DNA from: Chiloscyllium plagiosum
Lineage: Eukaryota
Assembly (NCBI RefSeq): GCF_004010195.1
Contig: NC_057753.1
Coordinates: 6,437,277-6,462,162 of the forward strand
DNA length: 24,886 nt
Direction of reading: 5' to 3'
Below, in pieces: positions 2,541 through 23,640 of the stretch. The position numbers were made by a program, and so were the translations under genes. The notes beneath the pieces were generated by a model, which worked only from the letters and a program-made list of their open reading frames with translations, searched no databases and was not told where the DNA came from. How positions within the stretch are numbered: position 1 is the stretch's first letter; every line of letters begins with the position of its first letter.

Positions 2541-3802
2541 CCGGGCTGATCAGTTATCTTCAACTGAATTAGTCCCATTTGCCTGAATTTGACCCCTGTC
2601 CTTCCAATGGTTTCCTCTGCGCGTACTGATGTTGTAATTGCATTTGCCATTACTACCTCATCTGGAAGCTTGTTCAATACACGCTCTGTGTGAGAACAAT
2701 ATCCCTTTCATTCCTTTTACATTGCCCTTTTTCATCTTAAAGGGATTCCCTTCAGTTTTGTAATACTAGAGCTTCGAGAGAAGACCTCAGCTAATCATCT
2801 TATCAAGGCACTTCACGAATTTATAAACGAGGAAGAAAATGTCCCACCATATTCAAAGAAAAACGAACAAGGAAAATTTACAGCCCAGAAATAGGCCCTT
2901 TGGCCTTCCAAGCCAGAGCTGATCCAAATCCACTGTCTAAACCTGTCGCCAAATTCCTAAGCATCTGTATCCCTCTGTTCCCCAGCTACTCATGAATCTG
3001 TCCAGACGCACCTTAAATAAACCTACTGTGCCTGCCGCTACTACCTCTGCTGGCAACGCCTTCAAGGAACCTGCAACCTTCTGGGTTGCTGCGTGAAACC
3101 CCCCTGAACGTTTTACATCTCACCTGGAACGCGTGACCTCTCGCTATTGATTCCCTCACCATGGGAAGAAGCTTATTTCTATCTACCTTGCCTATAGCCT
3201 TCATGTATTTGTAGACCTCAATGAGTCCCCGCTCAATCTCCTTTCTTCTAATATTCATTGTCTTTCGGACCAGGCAACATTCTTGCAAAATTTCAATGCA
3301 CCATTTCGAGTTAAACAACATACTTCTTATAGCAGAGTGAATATAATTTCACACAATATTATAAAAGTGGCCTCACAAATTTCTTGTATAGCATGATATG
3401 CCAACTCCTAATTTCAATGCTCCAACCAGTACATAAAAGTGGCTTGTTTACTACCCTAACTACCTATGATACTAGTTGCAAAGCACTGTGAGCTTGCGAC
3501 CCCAGGTTTCTCTGTTCGGTAAACACACCGGGAGCCTACCATCTACAGTGTAATTTCTGGACGAATTTCCTAACCAAAATGCCACACTTTATATTTATCT
3601 ACATTAACCTTCAACTACTTCTTCTTTGCCCATTTAAAAAAGATGTTGCTTTACACAAAGATCACCTTCCTATGGTCCATTATATTATGGGCTAAACATT
3701 GAAAACCACGTCTCCGATATTTCATCTAAATCAATTATGTAATTGACGAAAAGCAGGGGACTAATCACTGATGCTCGCAGAACACAACTCTCACTGGACC
3801 CC
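2540..3802 (-). mobile_element. Degenerate CR1 LINE 3' fragment (RT C-terminus + 3' region), interrupted at 2856-3250
   Basis: The reverse complement resembles the CR1 3' region and RT C-terminus: LVRPLL.Y-like sequence near 3340-3390 and a GVPQGSVLGP-like relic near 3750-3800. Confidence 0.75.
2856..3250 (-). mobile_element. 5'-truncated CR1 LINE 3' end nested in the older CR1
   Basis: Minus ORF 3013-3321 contains RGLIEVYKYMKAIGKVDRNKLLPMVRESIARGHAF, matching the CR1 ORF2 C-terminus. A simple-repeat tail lies at ~2856-2880, and ATATTCA flanks both sides (2849-2855, 3251-3257). Confidence 0.8.
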
Positions 3803-5324: not shown

Positions 5325-8300
5325 TAGAACGTAGAGCATAAAACATCACAACGCAGCACAGCCCCTTCGGCCCTCAAGTTTGTGCCGATTTGTGAAACCA
5401 ATATGAAACCCATCTCAGCTACACGAATCCATTATCATTCATATGTTTCTCCAATGCCAATTTGAATCCCATAATTTTGGCGAGTCTACTGCAATTGCAG
5501 GCAAGGAGTATTGCATGCACCTCTGACATCTCTTCCATATCTATCAACACTGAATTTGAATCAATTTCAAATCATGCTGCCGTCACCATGCGAGGAAAAA
5601 AAGTCTCTCACTATCCACCTTATCTAATCCTCGGGTCATTTCGTATGTCACTATTATGTCAACACTGAACGAAATCAGATTCAAGTACCTCAGTCTTTCC
5701 TTATAAAACCTTCCATTTATACCAGGCAACATCCTGGTAAATCAGTTCTTTATCATTTCCAATGTTTCTCCAAACTTCCTGAAAATTCTATTAGATTTAA
5801 AAGAATGATGGAAAAGGATAGACCAGATCTAAAAGTTGAAGTTCTAATTTGGAGAAAGGCTAATTTTTGACGGTAATAGGCAAGAACGTTCGAAAGCTGA
5901 TTGGGGGCAGATTTTCGCAGGTAAAGGGACGGCTTGAAAATGGGAAGCCTTCAGAAATGAGATAGCGAGAATACAGGGAAAGTATATTCCTGTTAGGAAA
6001 AAAGGAACGTCTGTTAAGTATTATGGATGCTGGATGACCAAAGAAATTGAGGGTTTGGTTAAGAAAAAGAAGGAAACATATTTAAGGGACAGACAGGATA
6101 GATCGAGTGAATCCTGAGAAGAGTGTAAAGGAAGTAGGAGTACACTTAAGAGGGAAATCAGGTCGGCAAAAAGGGGACATGAGATAGCTTTAGCGAATAG
6201 AATTAAGGAGAATCCAAAGAGTTTTAGCAAATACATTAAGGACAAAATGGCAACTATGGAGAAAATAGTTCCCCTCAAAGATCAGCAAGGTGGCCTTTGT
6301 GTGGAGCCGCAGAAAATGGGGGGAGATACTAAATTAGTATTTTGCATCAGCATGTACTGGGCAAAAGCAAATGGAAGATATAGAATGTAATGAATTAGAT
6401 GGTGACATCTTGCAGAAGGTCTATAGTGCAGAGGTGGAAGTTTTAAATGTCTCGCAATGGGTAAAGGTGGATAAATCCCCAGGACTTGTGCAACCGCTGC
6501 AGTTGTGATCTATAAGGACTTCATTAAGGCGTTCATCAAGGTTCCCCATGGGACACTGATTAGCAAGGTTAAATCTCATGAAATACAGGGAGAACTAGCC
6601 ATTTGGATACAAAACTGTCTCAAAAGTAGATGACAAAGAGTGGTGGTGTAGGGTTGTTTTTCAGACTGGAGGCCTGTGACCAGTGGAGTGCCACAAGTAT
6701 CGGTGCTGTGTCCTCTACTTTATTTTGTCATTCACATAAATAATTTGCATGCGACCATAAGAGGTACAGCTCGTAGGTTTGCAGATGCCACCAAAATTGG
6801 AGATGTAGTGGACAGTGAAGAGGGTACCTCAGGTCACAACAGGATCTTGCCCAGATGAGCAAATGGGCTGAGAAGTTGCAGATGGAGTTTAATTCAGAAT
6901 AATAGCGAGGTGCCGCATTTTGGGAAAGCAAATCTTAACAGGACTTATACATTTAATGGTAAGATCCTAGGGAGTGTTGCTGAACAACGAGAACTTGGAG
7001 TGCAGGTTCATATCTCCTTGAAAGTGGAGTCGCAGGTAGATAGAATAGTAAAGAAGGCATTTGGTCTGCTTACCTTTATTGTTTTGAGTATTGAGTACAG
7101 GAGTTGTGAGGTCATGTTGAGGCTGTACAGGACATTGGTTAGGCCACTGTTGGAATATTGTGTACAATTCTGTTCTCCTTCCTAACGGAAAGATGTTGTG
7201 AAACTTGAAAGGATTCAGAAAAGATTTACAGGGATGTTGCCAGGGTTGGAGGATTTGAGCTATGGGGAGAGGCTGAACAGGCTAGGGCTGTTTTCCCTGG
7301 AGTGTCTGAGGCTGAGAGGTTATCTGGTAGAGGTTTACAACATTATGAGGGGCATGGATAGGGTAAATAGGCAAAGTCTTTTCCCCGGGCTTGGAGAGTC
7401 CACAACTAGATGGCATAGGTTTAGGGTGAGAGGGGAAAAATATAAAACAGACCTACGGGACAATTTTTCACACAGAGGTTGGTATGTGTATGGAATGTGC
7501 TGCCAGAGGAAGTGGTGGAGGCTGGTACAATTGTAACATTTAAAATACATTTGGATGGGTATTTGAATAGGAAGGGTTTGGAAGGATATGGGCTGGGTAC
7601 TAGCATGTGGGACTCGAGTGGGTTGGTAAATCAGATCGGCATGAACGCGCTGGAATGAAGGGTCTGTTTCCATGCTGTACATCTCTATGACTCTATGTTG
7701 CGTCCTGAACTGAACACAATACTCCAAGTACGGCTGCACCTGAGTTTTGTACATCTGCAACATAACCTAATGGATCCGAAACTCACTTCCACTTCCAATA
7801 AGAGCTAACACATAGTATACCTTCTCAACAACCCTATCAACCGGCGTGGCAACTTTCGGGGATCTACATACATGAGACTGAGATGTCTCAGCTCATCCAT
7901 ACTAACTAGAATCTGACCATTAGCACAGTGCACTGCATTGCTGTTACTTGTTCCCAAGTGAATCACCTCACACTAGGCCTCGCCCTTCACAAAAGCGTGT
8001 TGTCTATCCCTAATCATCTCATTTATTTCACGATGATTTTAAATCCAATCTGTTATTAACCTTTTTTGACACGTTGCACATGACCGAAGTAAGGCTCACT
8101 GGTCGAGAATGACCAGGGCCCTCTCTACTCCACTTCTTAAACAAACGGACAACAGTTGCTGTTCTTCCTATAGACAACGACGACATGAAGATAAAAGAAA
8201 ACAACGTTTCTGATATCTCCGCCCCAGTTTGCTAGAGAAACCGACGAAAAATCCCATCCGACCATGGGGACTTTTCAATTTTTATACTTTGCAGAATTTC

Positions 8301-10489: not shown

Positions 10490-13400
10490 TCTGCGAGTGG
10501 AGATGAACACGTGGCTGAAGAGCTGACTTAGGATAGAAGTCTTCCCATATGTGGACCATTTGCATACCTTCTGAGGTTGAGGGCATCTGTACTAGAAGAA
10601 CGAGTTGCACTTGAACTGGAGGGCACCAATATCCGGGGAGGAAGTTTGTGAGAGCTTTTCCAGAGAGTTTATACTAGTTTGGCAGGGGGATAGTGACAGG
10701 ATCGACTGATCACAAAATGGGGTAAGTGAGGAACATGCATATGCACTGTGCAGAGTCTGTGAGGAGTGTTAGACTTTGGGGAGAGCAAAGTTGCATTCCG
10801 GGTGATGGTTTGCTGTGTATCTATTTTGATGCAAGAAGTGTCAGGAAAGTGGGTGTTCGTCCTATTGCATGGATCAGTACGTGAAGGAATGGTGTTGCGG
10901 ACATTTCGAAGACATAAATGTCAGAGGAGCAGGAAAGGATTTTGGATGTTCTACAATTTTGATGTTTTAGAAGGAGACGCGAGAGACGAAAAAGAAAAAG
11001 TGAAGTGGCATAGTTAATCAGGAGTAGGTTTACAGTAGCAGAAACGGAGGTCGTTGACGGCGGTTTGTCAGCTGAATCAGGAAAAGTTGAGGTGAGAAAC
11101 ATGAAAAGAGCATTAATTTCATTGGGAAGCTTCTTTCGACCCACAAATAGCAACAGTGAAACGAAGGGTCTGATTGGGAGTCAAACTTGCAAATGTGCAG
11201 CAGTAACAGTGTTGTTGTCGTGGTGGTTTCAACTTCCCTAATATTGATTCAAACCTGCTTAGTGCAAATATTTTGGATAGAGCAGATTTTGACGGGTGGG
11301 TCAAGGAAGGATTGGTGAATCAACATGGAGAGAATGTCATACGAATGGACACCATATTGGATTTGCTTTTTTTTTGGCAACGAGCCAAATCGAATGTCAA
11401 ATTTCACGGTGACAGAGCATCTTGCTGATCGTGATCACGACACCCTAACCTTTGAAATAGTCATGGAGTGGTATACGAGCAGGCAGTGGGAAAGTGTATT
11501 TAATGAGGTTGCGTGGGATTAAAAAGTTAATAGGCAGGAATTTTGGATCATAAATTGGGAGCACGTATTCTCAGAGAAATACACGACAGAAATGTGAAGA
11601 TTATTCATGGAGGGCTTGCAGTATGTGCTGGATAGGTTTCTCACCCTGAAGCAGGAATGAATAGCAGTGTGAAGGAATCTTTGATGAAAGAGCTTTGGGT
11701 TATCTAGTCAGGAGGAAGAAGGACGCTTATTCAAGTTTGAGGAAGCAAGGAATAGACAGGGGACTAGAAAGTTATAAGGTTGTTAGGAAGGAACTGAAGA
11801 CATGATTTGGCAGCACTGGAAGAGGACGAAAAATGTTCAGTGGGTAAGACTATGGAAAATCAGAAGGCGTAAGACCCTGATGTGAGAAACAAGATGACGG
11901 GCAGAGTGAGGGTCGGGCCGATCAAGGACAGTGAAGGGCACTTGTGCCTGGTGTCAGAGGAAGAAGGGAAGGTCATTAATTAATACATTGCTTCAATGTT
12001 TACTCCTGAGAGGGAATTTATGCATTATGAGGACAATGTGAAACAGGCTGATATGCTCTAACAGGTTCATGTTAAGAAGGAGAATGTACTGGAAGTTTTG
12101 AAAAACACGAGAATAGGTCAGTCCACCTAGCCAAACGGGATATACCCAAGGTTAATATGGGAGCCAACGTCTTTGGGGATAATACTTGCATCCTCGCTCT
12201 TCACTAGAGTCGGAAACAATAAAGGGAATGTTTTTCTCTTCTTCAAGAAACGGAATAGGGCTTAGCCTGGGAATTACAGAACAAGCAATCTTTCGTCGAC
12301 GATGCACAAATTCTTGAAGTCAATTCTGAGAGACAGGATTTAAGATTATTTGGAAAAGTACAGCTTTATTCGAGATAGTCGGCATGATTTCCAGAAGGTC
12401 AGGTCATGCCTCATAAATCTTGTTGAATTCTTTAAGAATGTGACAAAACGCATTGATGACATAAGGAGAGTGCATGTCTTGTGTGTGAATTTCAGCAAAG
12501 TGTTCAAGAAGTTTCCCCATTGTCGCCTCATTCAGAAAGTAAGGAGGCACGGGAGACAGGGAAATTTGGTTGCCTGGAGAAAGAACAGGGTGGCACATAG
12601 AAGACAGAGGATGGTAGTAGATGGAAATTATTCAGTCTGGAGTTCAGGGAATAATGGTGTTCGGCATGCATCTGCTGTGGGACCTCTGCTCTTTATGATC
12701 TTCGTATTTGACTTGAATGAGGGAGCGGAAGAGAGCTTTAGGAAGTTTGCCAATAATGCAAAGCTTGGGGGAGGCATGGATCGCGTAGATGGCTGTTATC
12801 AGTCGCAACGGGGCATTGGCAGATACAGAGCTGAACTGATCACTGCCAGATGGAGTTTAATCAGGAGAAGTGCAAAGTGATTCATTTTACAACTTCGAAT
12901 TTCAAGGCAGATTACAGGGTTTAGTGAGGATTCGTGTCAGTGTGGAGCAGCTGACGGACCATGAGGTCCACGTACATAAACCAGCATCTGTAGTGATCAA
13001 ATTCTTCTATTGTATCTTGTTCTGGTAGCTTCATTATAGGAAGGATATGGAAGAATTAAATAGGATTGTGAGGAAATAATCAAGGATGCTGCCTCCACTG
13101 AAGGGCTTGTCCTGTGAAGAAATCTTGAGGGAGCTTGGGATTTTTTTATTGAAGTGAAAAAGGATAAGAGGTGACTTAACAAATGTACACAAGATGACGA
13201 GGAGCACAGTTAGAGTGGATAGTCAGACTTCATTGTTTCCCAGTGCGGAAATGGGTATCAGAAGGGGACATGATATTTGCGTGTTTGGAGGAAGGTTTTG
13301 AGGATACGTCAGAGGTTGTTTCTGTACGCAGACGGTGGTAGGTGTTTGGAATACACTGCCAGCAGTGATGGAAGAGTCAGATACATCAGGGAAAATTAAG

Positions 13401-17947: not shown

Positions 17948-18447
17948 NNNNNNNNNNNNNNNNNNNNNNNNNNNNNNNNNNNNNNNNNNNNNNNNNNNNN
18001 NNNNNNNNNNNNNNNNNNNNNNNNNNNNNNNNNNNNNNNNNNNNNNNNNNNNNNNNNNNNNNNNNNNNNNNNNNNNNNNNNNNNNNNNNNNNNNNNNNNN
18101 NNNNNNNNNNNNNNNNNNNNNNNNNNNNNNNNNNNNNNNNNNNNNNNNNNNNNNNNNNNNNNNNNNNNNNNNNNNNNNNNNNNNNNNNNNNNNNNNNNNN
18201 NNNNNNNNNNNNNNNNNNNNNNNNNNNNNNNNNNNNNNNNNNNNNNNNNNNNNNNNNNNNNNNNNNNNNNNNNNNNNNNNNNNNNNNNNNNNNNNNNNNN
18301 NNNNNNNNNNNNNNNNNNNNNNNNNNNNNNNNNNNNNNNNNNNNNNNNNNNNNNNNNNNNNNNNNNNNNNNNNNNNNNNNNNNNNNNNNNNNNNNNNNNN
18401 NNNNNNNNNNNNNNNNNNNNNNNNNNNNNNNNNNNNNNNNNNNNNNN
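17948..18447. other. Assembly gap (500 N)
   Basis: Exactly 500 Ns, a round placeholder size, so the true distance across it is unknown. Confidence 1.
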
Positions 18448-18639
18448 CCTTGTGGAAAGATGTCAATAAGCAACATTTCTTTCAACTTCCGATTATAGCA
18501 AAATGTACAAGTTCCCTGTCCCGACTGTTCCAAACACGCAGATGAGATACAGCGCTAATATGAAACAATGATTATGCTGACTGCATTCATTTCATTCCAT
18601 TGTCTCCGATGAAACTGTCTGATATTATATCAGAATATT

Positions 18640-19411: not shown

Positions 19412-19937
19412 CAGCTCGGTCAAGCAACAGTATGGTCAAATAAGCTGCCATTTGAATCAGCTTGTGTTTTCAAATTCCCCTTCAGGCAAGCATGGACAAT
19501 TCAAGGAACTATAAAATATACTTTAGCTATCCAGTGATACATTTTAAGGCAGTACTAAACCTGCCATTTCCTTCACCTGCGTTCGTTGTTAGTATCGCAT
19601 CCATGCAGAGAAATCAATTCTTACAGAAAAGGCACAATTTTTTCAGCATTCAGTCTTGGAGTACGTTAGAAATCATGAACCTATATTGCCAGGGATGTGC
19701 AAGGATTAAAGTATTTCTTAATGTTTGTAATCTTTCCAAAATGTTCTATCTTTACAGACAAAGGTCAACCAAAAACACGGGCTTCGTTTCTGTACTTAAG
19801 GACATTGTGGGTTATTCCACATTTCTAAGTTATCGCTGACAGTCAATAACTTTGAACTCGTAACCTCTAAGTAAACGATGTTATTCCATAATCCACTTAT
19901 AGCAGTCCCCCAAATAACCATTGAAACGTATTAGTTG

Positions 19938-20032
19938 TATATGTATATATATATATATACATATATGTGCACACACACAAACACACGCATATATATATAA
20001 TAATAATATGCAGTTATGTAGGGAGAGAGAGA
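19938..20032. repeat. Compound microsatellite (TA)n/(CA)n/(TAA)n/(GA)n
   Basis: Directly visible. Confidence 0.9.
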
Positions 20033-20763
20033 AAAAAACTGGGCGGCGTTACAGTTACCCACAGAGTGCACTGAACTGTTGTCTTTTATCAAGAGCATTT
20101 GGCTGCTGTTGAGCACATCTCCAGCTCCTTTTTGTTTGCTTGCAAAAGACAGAGCATCATACTGTAACAAAGGAACAAAAGAAAGACCTTCAGTCCAACT
20201 AGTTCCTACCGCCCATAATTACAAACTGGACAGGTCACTTCTGCCTGGAATGGGCCCATACGGCTCCGAAACTTTCCTATTCATGGAAATATCCAAACGT
20301 CTTTTTAACATTGCAATGGAACCCGCACACATGACCTGACCTGCCAATTCATTCTGCACACAGGCCATCCTCTATGCAAAATATACCCCCCCATGTCTTT
20401 GCAGATCTTTCATCTCACCTTAAAATTTTACCCTCCAGTCTCAAAATACCCCCGGTCAAGCAGAAGATCACCTAGCATTAAATGTAGCGATACATCTCAT
20501 GATTTTATACACCTATAAGGTCGCAGACCACTTCTTCGGCTCCAGTGAAAATAAATACTCAGCCTTTCCAGTTACTCCTGAGAAGTCAAAGGTTCCATAA
20601 TCCTCAGCATCCTTGTATAAAAAAAAATGCTGAACTCTCCAAACTTCATTATAAAGCATTCCAATAAGAGGAACAATTGAGGACTGCAGAATCTGGGGAT
20701 CAGAGTCAAAACTTGTGTTGCTGGAAAAGCACAGCCGGTCAGACAGCATCCGAGGAGCAGGAG

Positions 20764-20799
20764 AACCTACGTTTCTAGCAGAAGCACTTCCTCAGGAAT
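20764..20799 (-). ncRNA. Minimal hammerhead-ribozyme-like motif (core intact, stem II degraded)
   Basis: The minus strand reads ATTC-CTGAGGA-AGTGCTTCTGCTA-GAAAC-GTA: CUGANGA and GAAA boxes, a GUH triplet and a palindromic ACGT helix III. Confidence 0.6.
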
Positions 20800-20801
20800 G
20801 C

Positions 20802-20832
20802 GTGATGAAGAGCTTATGCTCAAAACGTTGAC
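20802..20832 (+). ncRNA. Degenerate minimal hammerhead-ribozyme-like motif (stem II intact, core mutated)
   Basis: GTGATGA-A-GAGC-TTAT-GCTC-AAAAC-GTT: a perfect 4-bp stem II, with C3>G and G12>A substitutions in the core. Confidence 0.5.
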
Positions 20833-21293
20833 TATCCCTCTCTGCAGATGCTGCCTGTATGGCTGTGGTTTTCTACCACCAGAAGTTTTGACTCTTTCCC
20901 ATAATAGGTCGAAAAGAAATGGACAACAATGCTCCATGGGAGACCTCACTAACATTTTTACATATCAAAATGACGTCCCAATTCTTATTCTCAATGGTCT
21001 GAACAGTGAAGGCCAGCATACTAAATGCCTTCTTAACTATCCTATAAATGTGTGACATAAAGTTCAAAGAATTATGTACCTAATCTTCGAGGTCCGTCTT
21101 ATCTATAATACCATGTAAGGTCTTGCTTTAATTGAATATTTCCTGCCTTGGTGTTTTGCAAAATCAATATTTCGTATTCACTCCTGTTATACTTGGTCCA
21201 CCATTATTCCACTCCTTCATCCATTCAATAGAAATCACTTTGTCATCTTAGAAAACTGTTTGCTGTCTTCCATAACTTTATTGATATTTGTGC

Positions 21294-22142: not shown

Positions 22143-22883
22143 CACCTTCCCCTGCCACAACAGTATGTGCACAACCTGCCCCTGCATCGTCCCCTCACCT
22201 CCATCTAAGGCCCCAAAGAATCCTTGCACATCTGACAGAAATTTACCTCTACCTCCACAAATGTCAATTGCTGTATCCGTTGCACTTGATGTGTTCGTCT
22301 GTACATTGCGGAGAGTGGATGTCAACTTGGAAAATCGTTTCAGAGACCTTCGCTGGGACACCCGCACCAACCAATCCCATTGTCCTGTGGTTGAACACTT
22401 CAACTGTCCCACACACTCAACCAAGGACATGCAAGTCTTGGGCCTCTTCCATCGCCTAACCTTAACCATCCAAAGACTGAAGGAAGCATGCCTCTTCTTC
22501 TGCCTTTGGAAAGTGCAACCATATCGGATTAAAATGGACCTCATAAGTTTCCCCATTTCGTCTTCCTTCAGTTTATCTCAGTCCCAAGACTCCAACTCGA
22601 TAAAACCTGCTGGAACTATCAATCGCCATTCCCATCTATCCATTCCCCCCCTCATCTCTGACCTATATCCTTCTCCCTACTTTCATCTACCTATTGCCTT
22701 CTTAGCTACCTTCCCGCGAACCGCAACACCTTCCATTTATCTCTCAGACCTCCTCCCCCAAGCCTCATTCCGGATGACTGAAACTCGATCCTCCTGCTCC
22801 TCGGTTACTGCTTGACGAGGTTTGTTTTTCCAGTACCATACTTCCGACTCTGATCTCCAGCATCTGCAGTCCTCACATTCTCC
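22143..22883 (+). mobile_element. Penelope-like element 3' fragment: GIY-YIG endonuclease + terminal repeat
   Basis: Frameshifted TFPCH..CTTC, NVNCCIRCT*C..LYIAESG (GIY-YIG relic), RFRDLRWDTRTNQSHCPVVEHFN and MQVLGL..RLKEACLFF. A C/T-rich 3' region follows, with a collapsed hammerhead relic (CGGATGA-CT-GAAAC, 22771-22785) and the terminus ..CTGCAGTCCTCACATTCTCC. Confidence 0.92.
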
Positions 22884-23269
22884 GGATGCATTGCTTTGTT
22901 TCAGACATTCAGTGATTTATGAGCGATCGGGACTGATGTTTATTGCTGTTTCTCCCCAATACCATGGGCCCCATTATTTTTATTCAGCATTTTTCAATTA
23001 GGCGATGTTTGTCTGGAAAGTTATAGGAGAACTGCAGGCATGATTCATTCTTCCTCTTGACGGGAACCTCAGTATGTTTATTCATTCATTGTACTCAAAT
23101 GTTACCAGGCATGTATTTCAATTTAACATGAACATAATTATTCAGAACTGACCTTCCATTTTCAGACGTCCTATTGCATTTAAAAAGTGTACGTTAATCA
23201 TCTTTGAATGTTCTGGTAGCATACCAAAAAAATCTGCCTTTATTTAATTATCTAAGATGTCTTAACATA

Positions 23270-23640
23270 TATATTTCTCAACTTAACTGTGACTACTTGA
23301 ATGCCTAAAGTACAATCTCAACAAGGTGACGATTCCTTTCTTATTTCGAAATTCAACTCATATGTTTTCGCTCAACTTTTTTTTCAGAAATGTCGTCTCG
23401 AGTTACAACAGTAATGAAAATTTGAGATCCCACTCCTCTCCGCCCTCCCATTCCATCTTTCCAGTAGCATTTTGCACCTTGGAACATTGAGCTGCCACAC
23501 CTGTCCATTCCTCCAATTTCTGTAATGACTACGACGTCTCAACCCCATCTTTCCCAGCATTCGCTGCGTTCATCAGCCTAACATGCAAAACAACTTTCCT
23601 TAAAAAAGAGGCAGTTTAATTCTTCGTACTCTGATATTTC
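23270..23640 (-). mobile_element. Decayed CR1 APE endonuclease N-terminal fragment
   Basis: Reverse complement gives LNCLF..., ADE, DVVVITE, GQVWQLNVPRCKCYWKD..GGRRGVG. It may be the continuation of the 20150-22130 element. Confidence 0.7.

Follow-up and report, generated by a model that had tools for sequence, protein, structure and literature searches.

Results

A fold-back insertion in a CR1-type LINE

The window analysed here is a stretch of 24,886 nucleotides from Chiloscyllium plagiosum. A short non-coding fold-back element lies in it between the two copies of a target site duplication (TSD) and splits a LINE fragment, which we take to be of the CR1 type. A decayed 3' fragment of a Penelope-like element (PLE) is located about 2 kb away (Table 1). 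The host LINE is recognizable by a tblastn match at 21148-20966 and by its alignment, on either side of the insertion, with a CR1-like copy elsewhere in the window (6886-7548). When aligned separately to this second copy, both flanks end on the identical 13 nt. Because the flanks overlap on one 13-nt stretch of another CR1 copy, the 224 bp constitute a true single insertion into a minus-strand CR1. Among the nearby boundaries scanned, no register fitted better than the 13-bp TSD, which encloses the whole unit.

Table 1. Features of the fold-back locus and the neighbouring PLE fragment, in window coordinates.
Feature	Position	Strand	Observation or basis
Whole element	20672-20895 (224 bp)		One insertion between TSD copies; flank alignments to second CR1 copy
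Left TSD (CR1 sequence)	20659-20671		11/13 identical to right copy; corresponds to CR1 7178-7190
Right TSD	20896-20908		Corresponds to CR1 7178-7190
Host CR1-type LINE fragment, late ORF2 region	about 20300-21200	-	Split by the insertion; alignment and tblastn
PLE tail (30 nt) continuing the inverted arm, left end only	20672-20701	-	No mirror partner; 20678-20701 matches 22852-22875
Left arm, PLE pseudo-LTR end module, hammerhead end at centre	20702-20800	-	Complementarity and alignment
Head-to-head junction	20796-20801		Centre sequence; arms start within ~5 nt upstream of the C3 position
Right arm, PLE pseudo-LTR end module without tail	20801-20895	+	Complementarity and alignment
Decayed minimal type I hammerhead	20768-20795	-	Boxes intact (C3 20795, G12 20775, NUH triplet ending 20768); stem II broken
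Decayed minimal hammerhead	20802-20829	+	Stem II paired; core mutated C3G (20802) and G12A (20822)
Separate decayed PLE 3' fragment	22144-22885	+	CX4CX2C linker, frameshifted GIY-YIG region (22144-22542), 3' UTR, hammerhead-plus-tail module (22766-22885)

The two arms (20702-20794 against 20803-20895, 93 nt) are 75% complementary. The 250-nt region has a predicted minimum free energy of -107.1 kcal/mol, compared with -68.7 +/- 5.0 kcal/mol for shuffled sequences (z -7.69), and none of 200 shuffles was equally stable. Around the centre at 20798/20799, 25 of 97 mirrored pairs are mismatched, and the copy is therefore old. Sixteen of the 25 mismatches are transversions, and nine cluster within 18 bp (20751-20768 against 20829-20846). 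A first-pass annotation of this DNA had described a non-coding fold-back of about 224 bp in a CR1, flanked by this TSD and inserted in a single event, and each of these points holds up. Its description of the unit as a palindrome is accurate for the arms but not for the element as a whole, which the one-sided 30 nt at the left end make asymmetric.

The arms and a neighbouring Penelope-like fragment

Alignment joins the left arm, the right arm and the end of the downstream PLE fragment into one module. The left arm with its tail (20678-20763) is 78% identical to 22791-22875 over 86 nt, and stem II of the fragment's hammerhead module has lost 12 nt. When the three copies were made into a profile, the rest of the window yielded nothing else convincing (a single 27-nt match, E 3.6), nor was a convincing TSD found around the fragment.

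The coding piece of the fragment has no Pfam match of its own. It has seven protein matches at E<=0.001 (best 4.5e-07), two of which carry sub-threshold Pfam GIY-YIG matches, and it is through these relatives that we infer the GIY-YIG likeness of the parent element. The longest relative aligns with the endonuclease region (tblastn E 2e-11), CX4CX2C linker included, and the N-terminal half of this region lies in another frame. An ESM Atlas search gave a GIY-YIG cluster at 0.92 (42% of 67 members), which serves as a lead only. A protein search for longer relatives of the piece yielded 34 candidates, none at E<=0.001, and a PDB sequence search with an alignment as query gave three uninformative matches (E 0.66-0.92).

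A CX2-5CxxC linker ahead of the GIY-YIG domain is described as a mark of Neptune and Nematis PLEs (PMC8557442). As the arms share the module that ends a GIY-YIG-like fragment with a CX4CX2C linker, they are the terminal pseudo-LTR (pLTR) module of a PLE, probably of the Neptune type, set head to head with a tail at one end; the fragment has no RT, and the clade name comes from the linker. The Penelope origin proposed earlier for the element is thus borne out by a module that also ends the GIY-YIG-like fragment. A TCATTCC word stands just ahead of the hammerhead core, and the arms begin at or inside this word (20796-20801 and 22765-22771). We presume a likeness of the word to a Pol II initiator.

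Decayed hammerhead cores

The first-pass annotation placed a CUGANGA/GAAA-type core on each strand. Both boxes are present on the minus strand, where stem II has lost two of its four pairs and does not form (pairing probability no higher than 0.013), but the plus-strand boxes read GUGAUGA and AAAA. Stem II of the plus strand pairs with a probability of 0.74-0.84 in the isolated arm. G12, replaced on this strand, is essential for hammerhead function. The C3G change abolished activity of the ribozyme of the Poseidon element PAc (PMC11167929). Contig depth at 20802 has mostly C (2547.7 of 2973.6, run X3). Hammerhead positions were numbered by eye from the description of minimal hammerhead ribozymes (min-HHRs; PMC4209133).

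Scans with hammerhead descriptors, proposed earlier as a check, identified no hammerhead on the element. Rfam gave six matches in the window at E<=5, of which none falls on the element and none is a hammerhead, and a relaxed minimal-hammerhead descriptor, run without a positive control, had no match on either strand. At 23550-23576 (minus strand), a CUGAUGA...GAAA spacing with a small hairpin has neither NUH triplet nor helix III, fails the relaxed descriptor and is probably due to chance.

The loose ends of matching contigs allowed a family consensus to be read by eye on the minus strand. Its elements are CUGAUGA, one additional A, a stem II of 4 bp rich in G-C pairs, GAAA, the palindrome ACGU and the triplet GUC; helix I is weak (two pairs, a mismatch and one pair, likewise by eye). 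The published min-HHR description fits this consensus except for the weak helix I (PMC4209133). Neither arm in the window has the full set of min-HHR features, unlike the consensus. With boxes and stem II intact there, the cores can be regarded as hammerhead-derived, as first annotated.

Folding predictions indicate that the fold-back itself would impede both ribozymes. In the whole element, stem II is predicted to pair with a probability of 0.0 on either strand, and freeing the core boxes would cost 11.0 and 12.4 kcal/mol, against 3.3 and 8.4 kcal/mol in single arms. Transcripts barely long enough to hold a ribozyme are predicted to be zipped to antisense sequence already. In this copy, both ribozymes are decayed and, according to these predictions, sequestered by the hairpin. 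Each strand has one sense core with its own antisense ahead of it, and therefore no intramolecular dimer should be possible. In both arms the catalytic core is retained, and the DNA boundaries fall some 30 nt upstream of the GUH site; the template had thus not been cut at that site and is not a 3' cleavage product.

Copies in contigs and reads

Sequences of four runs, three of DNA type (assembled into contigs) and one of RNA, were matched to 20500-21100 at 80% likeness. Matches comprised 26,711 of 22.7 million contigs in X3, 22,644 of 25.8 million in X1 and 23,502 of 25.2 million records in X10 (organism B), as well as 2,053 of 12.96 million reads in the RNA run X18. Both this genome and a related one are very rich in the family. 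Depth is highest on the left arm (20710-20772), and the CR1 has a lesser peak. From 20786 to 20802 it drops from 15,315 to 2,974 (X3), from 30,925 to 3,097 (X1), from 19,057 to 4,237 (X10) and from 446 to 6 RNA reads (X18). Summed contig depth does not measure copy number; the 80% cut-off gives an advantage to the left arm, which is less decayed, and palindromes are under-represented in short-read contigs.

Joints that skip from the inverted to the direct arm vary in position. Ten such joints occur among the 15 listed of 67, with eight distinct inverted-arm ends between 20711 and 20766, each found in at most three contigs per run; the letters in between are known for six of the ten. Eight of the ten re-enter at 20803-20805, a position partly forced by the window. 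Among the 12 rows listed (of 79) that give the letters in between, nine re-enter at 20802-20805 with 1-13 intervening letters, and six of these nine contain the (A)TTC found ahead of the core; such rows hold at most 40 letters, which hides longer direct arms. Of 73,701 contig pieces, 24 are listed and eight of these cross the centre in the arrangement of the window, four of them having no fewer than 31 letters to either side. Compared with the window, the listed centre-crossing contigs have 1-9 gap letters. Near-symmetric copies therefore recur beside many with shorter inverted arms.

A run search listed no RNA run that contains the sequence. None of the 2,053 X18 reads is at least 99% alike to the window, and the RNA reads therefore come from other copies of the family. 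Their starts and ends show no pile-up; a single-cell poly(A) library of this kind cannot show cleavage ends.

The right junction and its CR1 flank (window 20791-21100) occur in several diverged or high-depth contigs of organisms A and B. A contig of organism B spanning 20833-20957 has four differences and one gap, at a depth of 92.8 against 10.8-14.7 in four other listed contigs of that run. The right-junction contigs of X3 have 9 and 18 differences at depths of 32.7 and 15.4. The organism B contig (4 differences in 124) is nearer to the window than the listed paralogues of A (9 in 113 and 18 in 139). Judged by these sequence differences, the insertion is probably older than the divergence of the two organisms, and it seems to have been duplicated together with its flank. 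The paralogues could stem from segmental duplication or from CR1-borne re-mobilisation. Duplication with the flank would inflate counts of copies that share identical boundaries.

Discussion

A probable truncated Penelope-like insertion with an inverted arm

Most likely, the element is an old Neptune-type PLE insertion with extreme 5' truncation, made of two head-to-head terminal modules of which the inverted copy arose at the time of insertion. As its fallback, the first-pass annotation had named a Penelope insertion, extremely truncated and bearing an inverted terminal repeat, and the TSD, the PLE-derived arms and the one-sided tail all support it. The tail of 30 nt matches PLE tails of 30-40 bp and 31 bp (PMC8557442, PMC3846280), the module is shared with a GIY-YIG-like fragment, and the inverted arms of the family end at variable points. 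The centre-crossing contigs (eight of the 24 listed pieces) and a PLE frame without a Pfam match speak against this reading.

The architecture itself is already known, and the locus is best read as an EN+ PLE insertion that was truncated and has its pLTR inverted. An inverted pLTR, a one-sided tail of 30-40 bp and a TSD form an established PLE layout according to PMC8557442 and PMC3846280. The complex EN+ PLE insertions treated there (Arkhipova et al. 2013, PMC3846280; Craig et al. 2021, PMC8557442) resemble the present element in the head-to-head inverted pLTR, the 30-nt tail at one end, the landing inside another retroelement and a TSD of variable length (13 bp at this locus against 8-10 bp in the rotifer cases described). 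The window holds the features that place an insertion in this class: a terminal module of a GIY-YIG element, an inverted 5'-truncated copy head to head, a tail at one end and a TSD around the unit. Compared with those insertions, the element is truncated to the limit, with no ORF, about 95-130 nt per arm and arms that stop just ahead of the hammerhead. The neighbouring fragment resembles Neptune- and Nematis-type PLEs in its CX4CX2C linker and GIY-YIG-like region, and differs from those described in PMC8557442 in having no RT.

Pairs of min-HHRs on opposite strands have been linked to truncated PLEs as well, at distances of 100-700 bp (Cervera and De la Peña 2014, PMC4209133). The cores at our locus are about 6 nt apart in contrast to those of metazoan PLE pLTRs, and they differ further in the 4-bp stem II, the weak helix I and the mutations in both window copies. 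A literature search found no paper devoted to this palindromic family, which may nonetheless be catalogued in Repbase/Dfam or appear among the vertebrate min-HHR alignments of PMC4209133.

How the inverted arm might have formed

Experiments on the Poseidon element PAc suggest how such a structure could arise. In vitro, the PAc protein nicks or cleaves both target strands and extends them, and reverse transcription begins from two internal positions that delimit the tail (PMC11167929). The protein is predicted to dimerise, and insertion persists in PAc hammerhead mutants, which makes the hammerhead dispensable for insertion (PMC11167929). If these findings on a Poseidon element are extended to the Neptune type, twin priming would proceed at our locus as follows. 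In the CR1 target, the endonuclease cuts on the two strands would lie 13 nt apart. Priming from the outer start site would give one end its tail, and priming from the inner site would leave the other end without one. Both cDNAs would run about 95-130 nt to a point just ahead of the hammerhead, probably the 5' terminus of the template, and would be joined head to head where they stop. The hammerhead would be a passenger, with the template left uncleaved and the resulting hairpin blocking the folding of the ribozyme.

The main alternative for the inversion step is fold-back or self-priming, as proposed in PMC3846280, in which a single cDNA or an antisense template is copied back on itself; a second PLE insertion at the 5' end of the first would have a similar outcome. 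Together these routes have a minor but appreciable chance of being correct. Palindromes at inverted junctions were interpreted as self-priming by Arkhipova et al. 2013 (PMC3846280), and PAc nicks its own pLTR region (PMC11167929). The arms also differ more from each other (25/97, with 16 of the 25 transversions) than the TSD copies do (2/13), but a TSD is too short for a useful comparison of divergence. Both arms lie within one TSD, the centre has little or no loop, and the tail is present on one arm only, which two start sites of reverse transcription explain directly.

On the reading as a truncated PLE insertion, the palindromes might record a more general process, and we put this forward as a speculation of about the same modest standing as self-priming. 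Short transcripts would start at the initiator-like site ahead of the hammerhead and be copied by a dimeric PLE protein from both nicked strands via two start sites of reverse transcription. The copies would run off the 5' end of the RNA and be joined. Such stubs may in turn be sources of new copies and form a SINE-like, non-autonomous PLE population. If this is true, thousands of junctions would map the transcript start and allow tests of how inverted pLTRs form.

A discrete family of palindromes or of retrozymes

The near-symmetric copies could also belong to a discrete non-autonomous family, in which a head-to-head master is transcribed and re-inserted as a unit by a PLE protein, with no need for the ribozyme. 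We consider this improbable. Eight listed contigs do cross a similar centre, and pLTRs are described as able to act in trans (PMC3846280), but these contigs differ from the window by their gap letters, some may be duplicates of this locus given the higher-depth contigs with the right junction and flank, and the inverted-arm ends among the listed joints are heterogeneous. Relative to the PLE fragment copy at 22 kb, the right arm has 11 private changes and the left arm five in 80 columns, as a fixed imperfect palindrome might give; the difference is not significant (p=0.21). The same counts leave an origin of the two arms from two different subfamilies or templates unsupported.

The first-pass annotation suggested a ribozyme-processed, retrozyme-like family, in which hammerheads cleave and circularise RNA transcribed from either strand and the product is retrotransposed. 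It expected copies to share boundaries and took heterogeneous inversion points as evidence to the contrary; the listed joints, although a partial list (15 of 67), are of the latter kind, with eight inverted-arm ends in ten. The consensus does retain an intact core with CUGAUGA, GAAA, stem II, a palindromic helix III position and GUC, and animal retrozymes have been proposed to derive from PLEs (bioRxiv 10.64898/2026.07.22.740005). Non-LTR retrozymes (Cervera and De la Peña 2020, PMC7229834; bioRxiv 10.64898/2026.07.22.740005) resemble the element in being non-coding and PLE-related, with a type I hammerhead and a TSD of more than 4 bp. However, they are defined in these accounts by tandem head-to-tail repeats, with same-sense, mostly canonical ribozymes and circular RNA, whereas the window has a single inverted pair, head to head, with one minimal, decayed and antisense-blocked sense core per strand. 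Cleavage as a dimer needs two same-sense copies, and a single min-HHR showed no cleavage in the in vitro assays of PMC4209133. On either strand the antisense arm comes first and is predicted to be paired already in the nascent transcript. With an uncut template, element ends away from the cleavage site, a weak consensus helix I and PAc hammerhead mutants that insert nonetheless (PMC11167929), a retrozyme-like origin is scarcely credible.

Implications

As a single locus, the element carries little weight, being a dead insertion of known architecture. The abundance of its family provides a large natural data set on how tandem and inverted PLE structures form, a question that PMC8557442 names as open. 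The apparent start of the direct arms lies a little upstream of the hammerhead and not at the cut site, which suggests that the ribozyme does not define the end of the template. Hairpins of this kind are at risk of mis-annotation as MITEs, retrozymes or miRNA precursors.

Other features of the window

Pattern scans gave no match in viral contigs, and three matches in metagenome contigs were isolated (22-23 nt, with no further similarity to the window) and were attributed to chance. Pfam identified no host exon or gene in 107 frames of at least 65 aa; the only match among four frames is a weak RVT_1, and the other 103 gave two sub-threshold matches. At least six decayed CR1-like LINE pieces lie on both strands (3085-3529, 5598-5762, 6517-7536, 7707-7969, 12344-13298 and 20300-21200). 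The assembly has a gap of 500 N at about 17950-18450. A (TA)n/(CA)n microsatellite at 19923-20003 gave sub-threshold Rfam miRNA matches (mir-297, mir-466), which are an artefact. At 2387-2509, a 33-nt tandem repeat is present in three copies with 70-72% identity.
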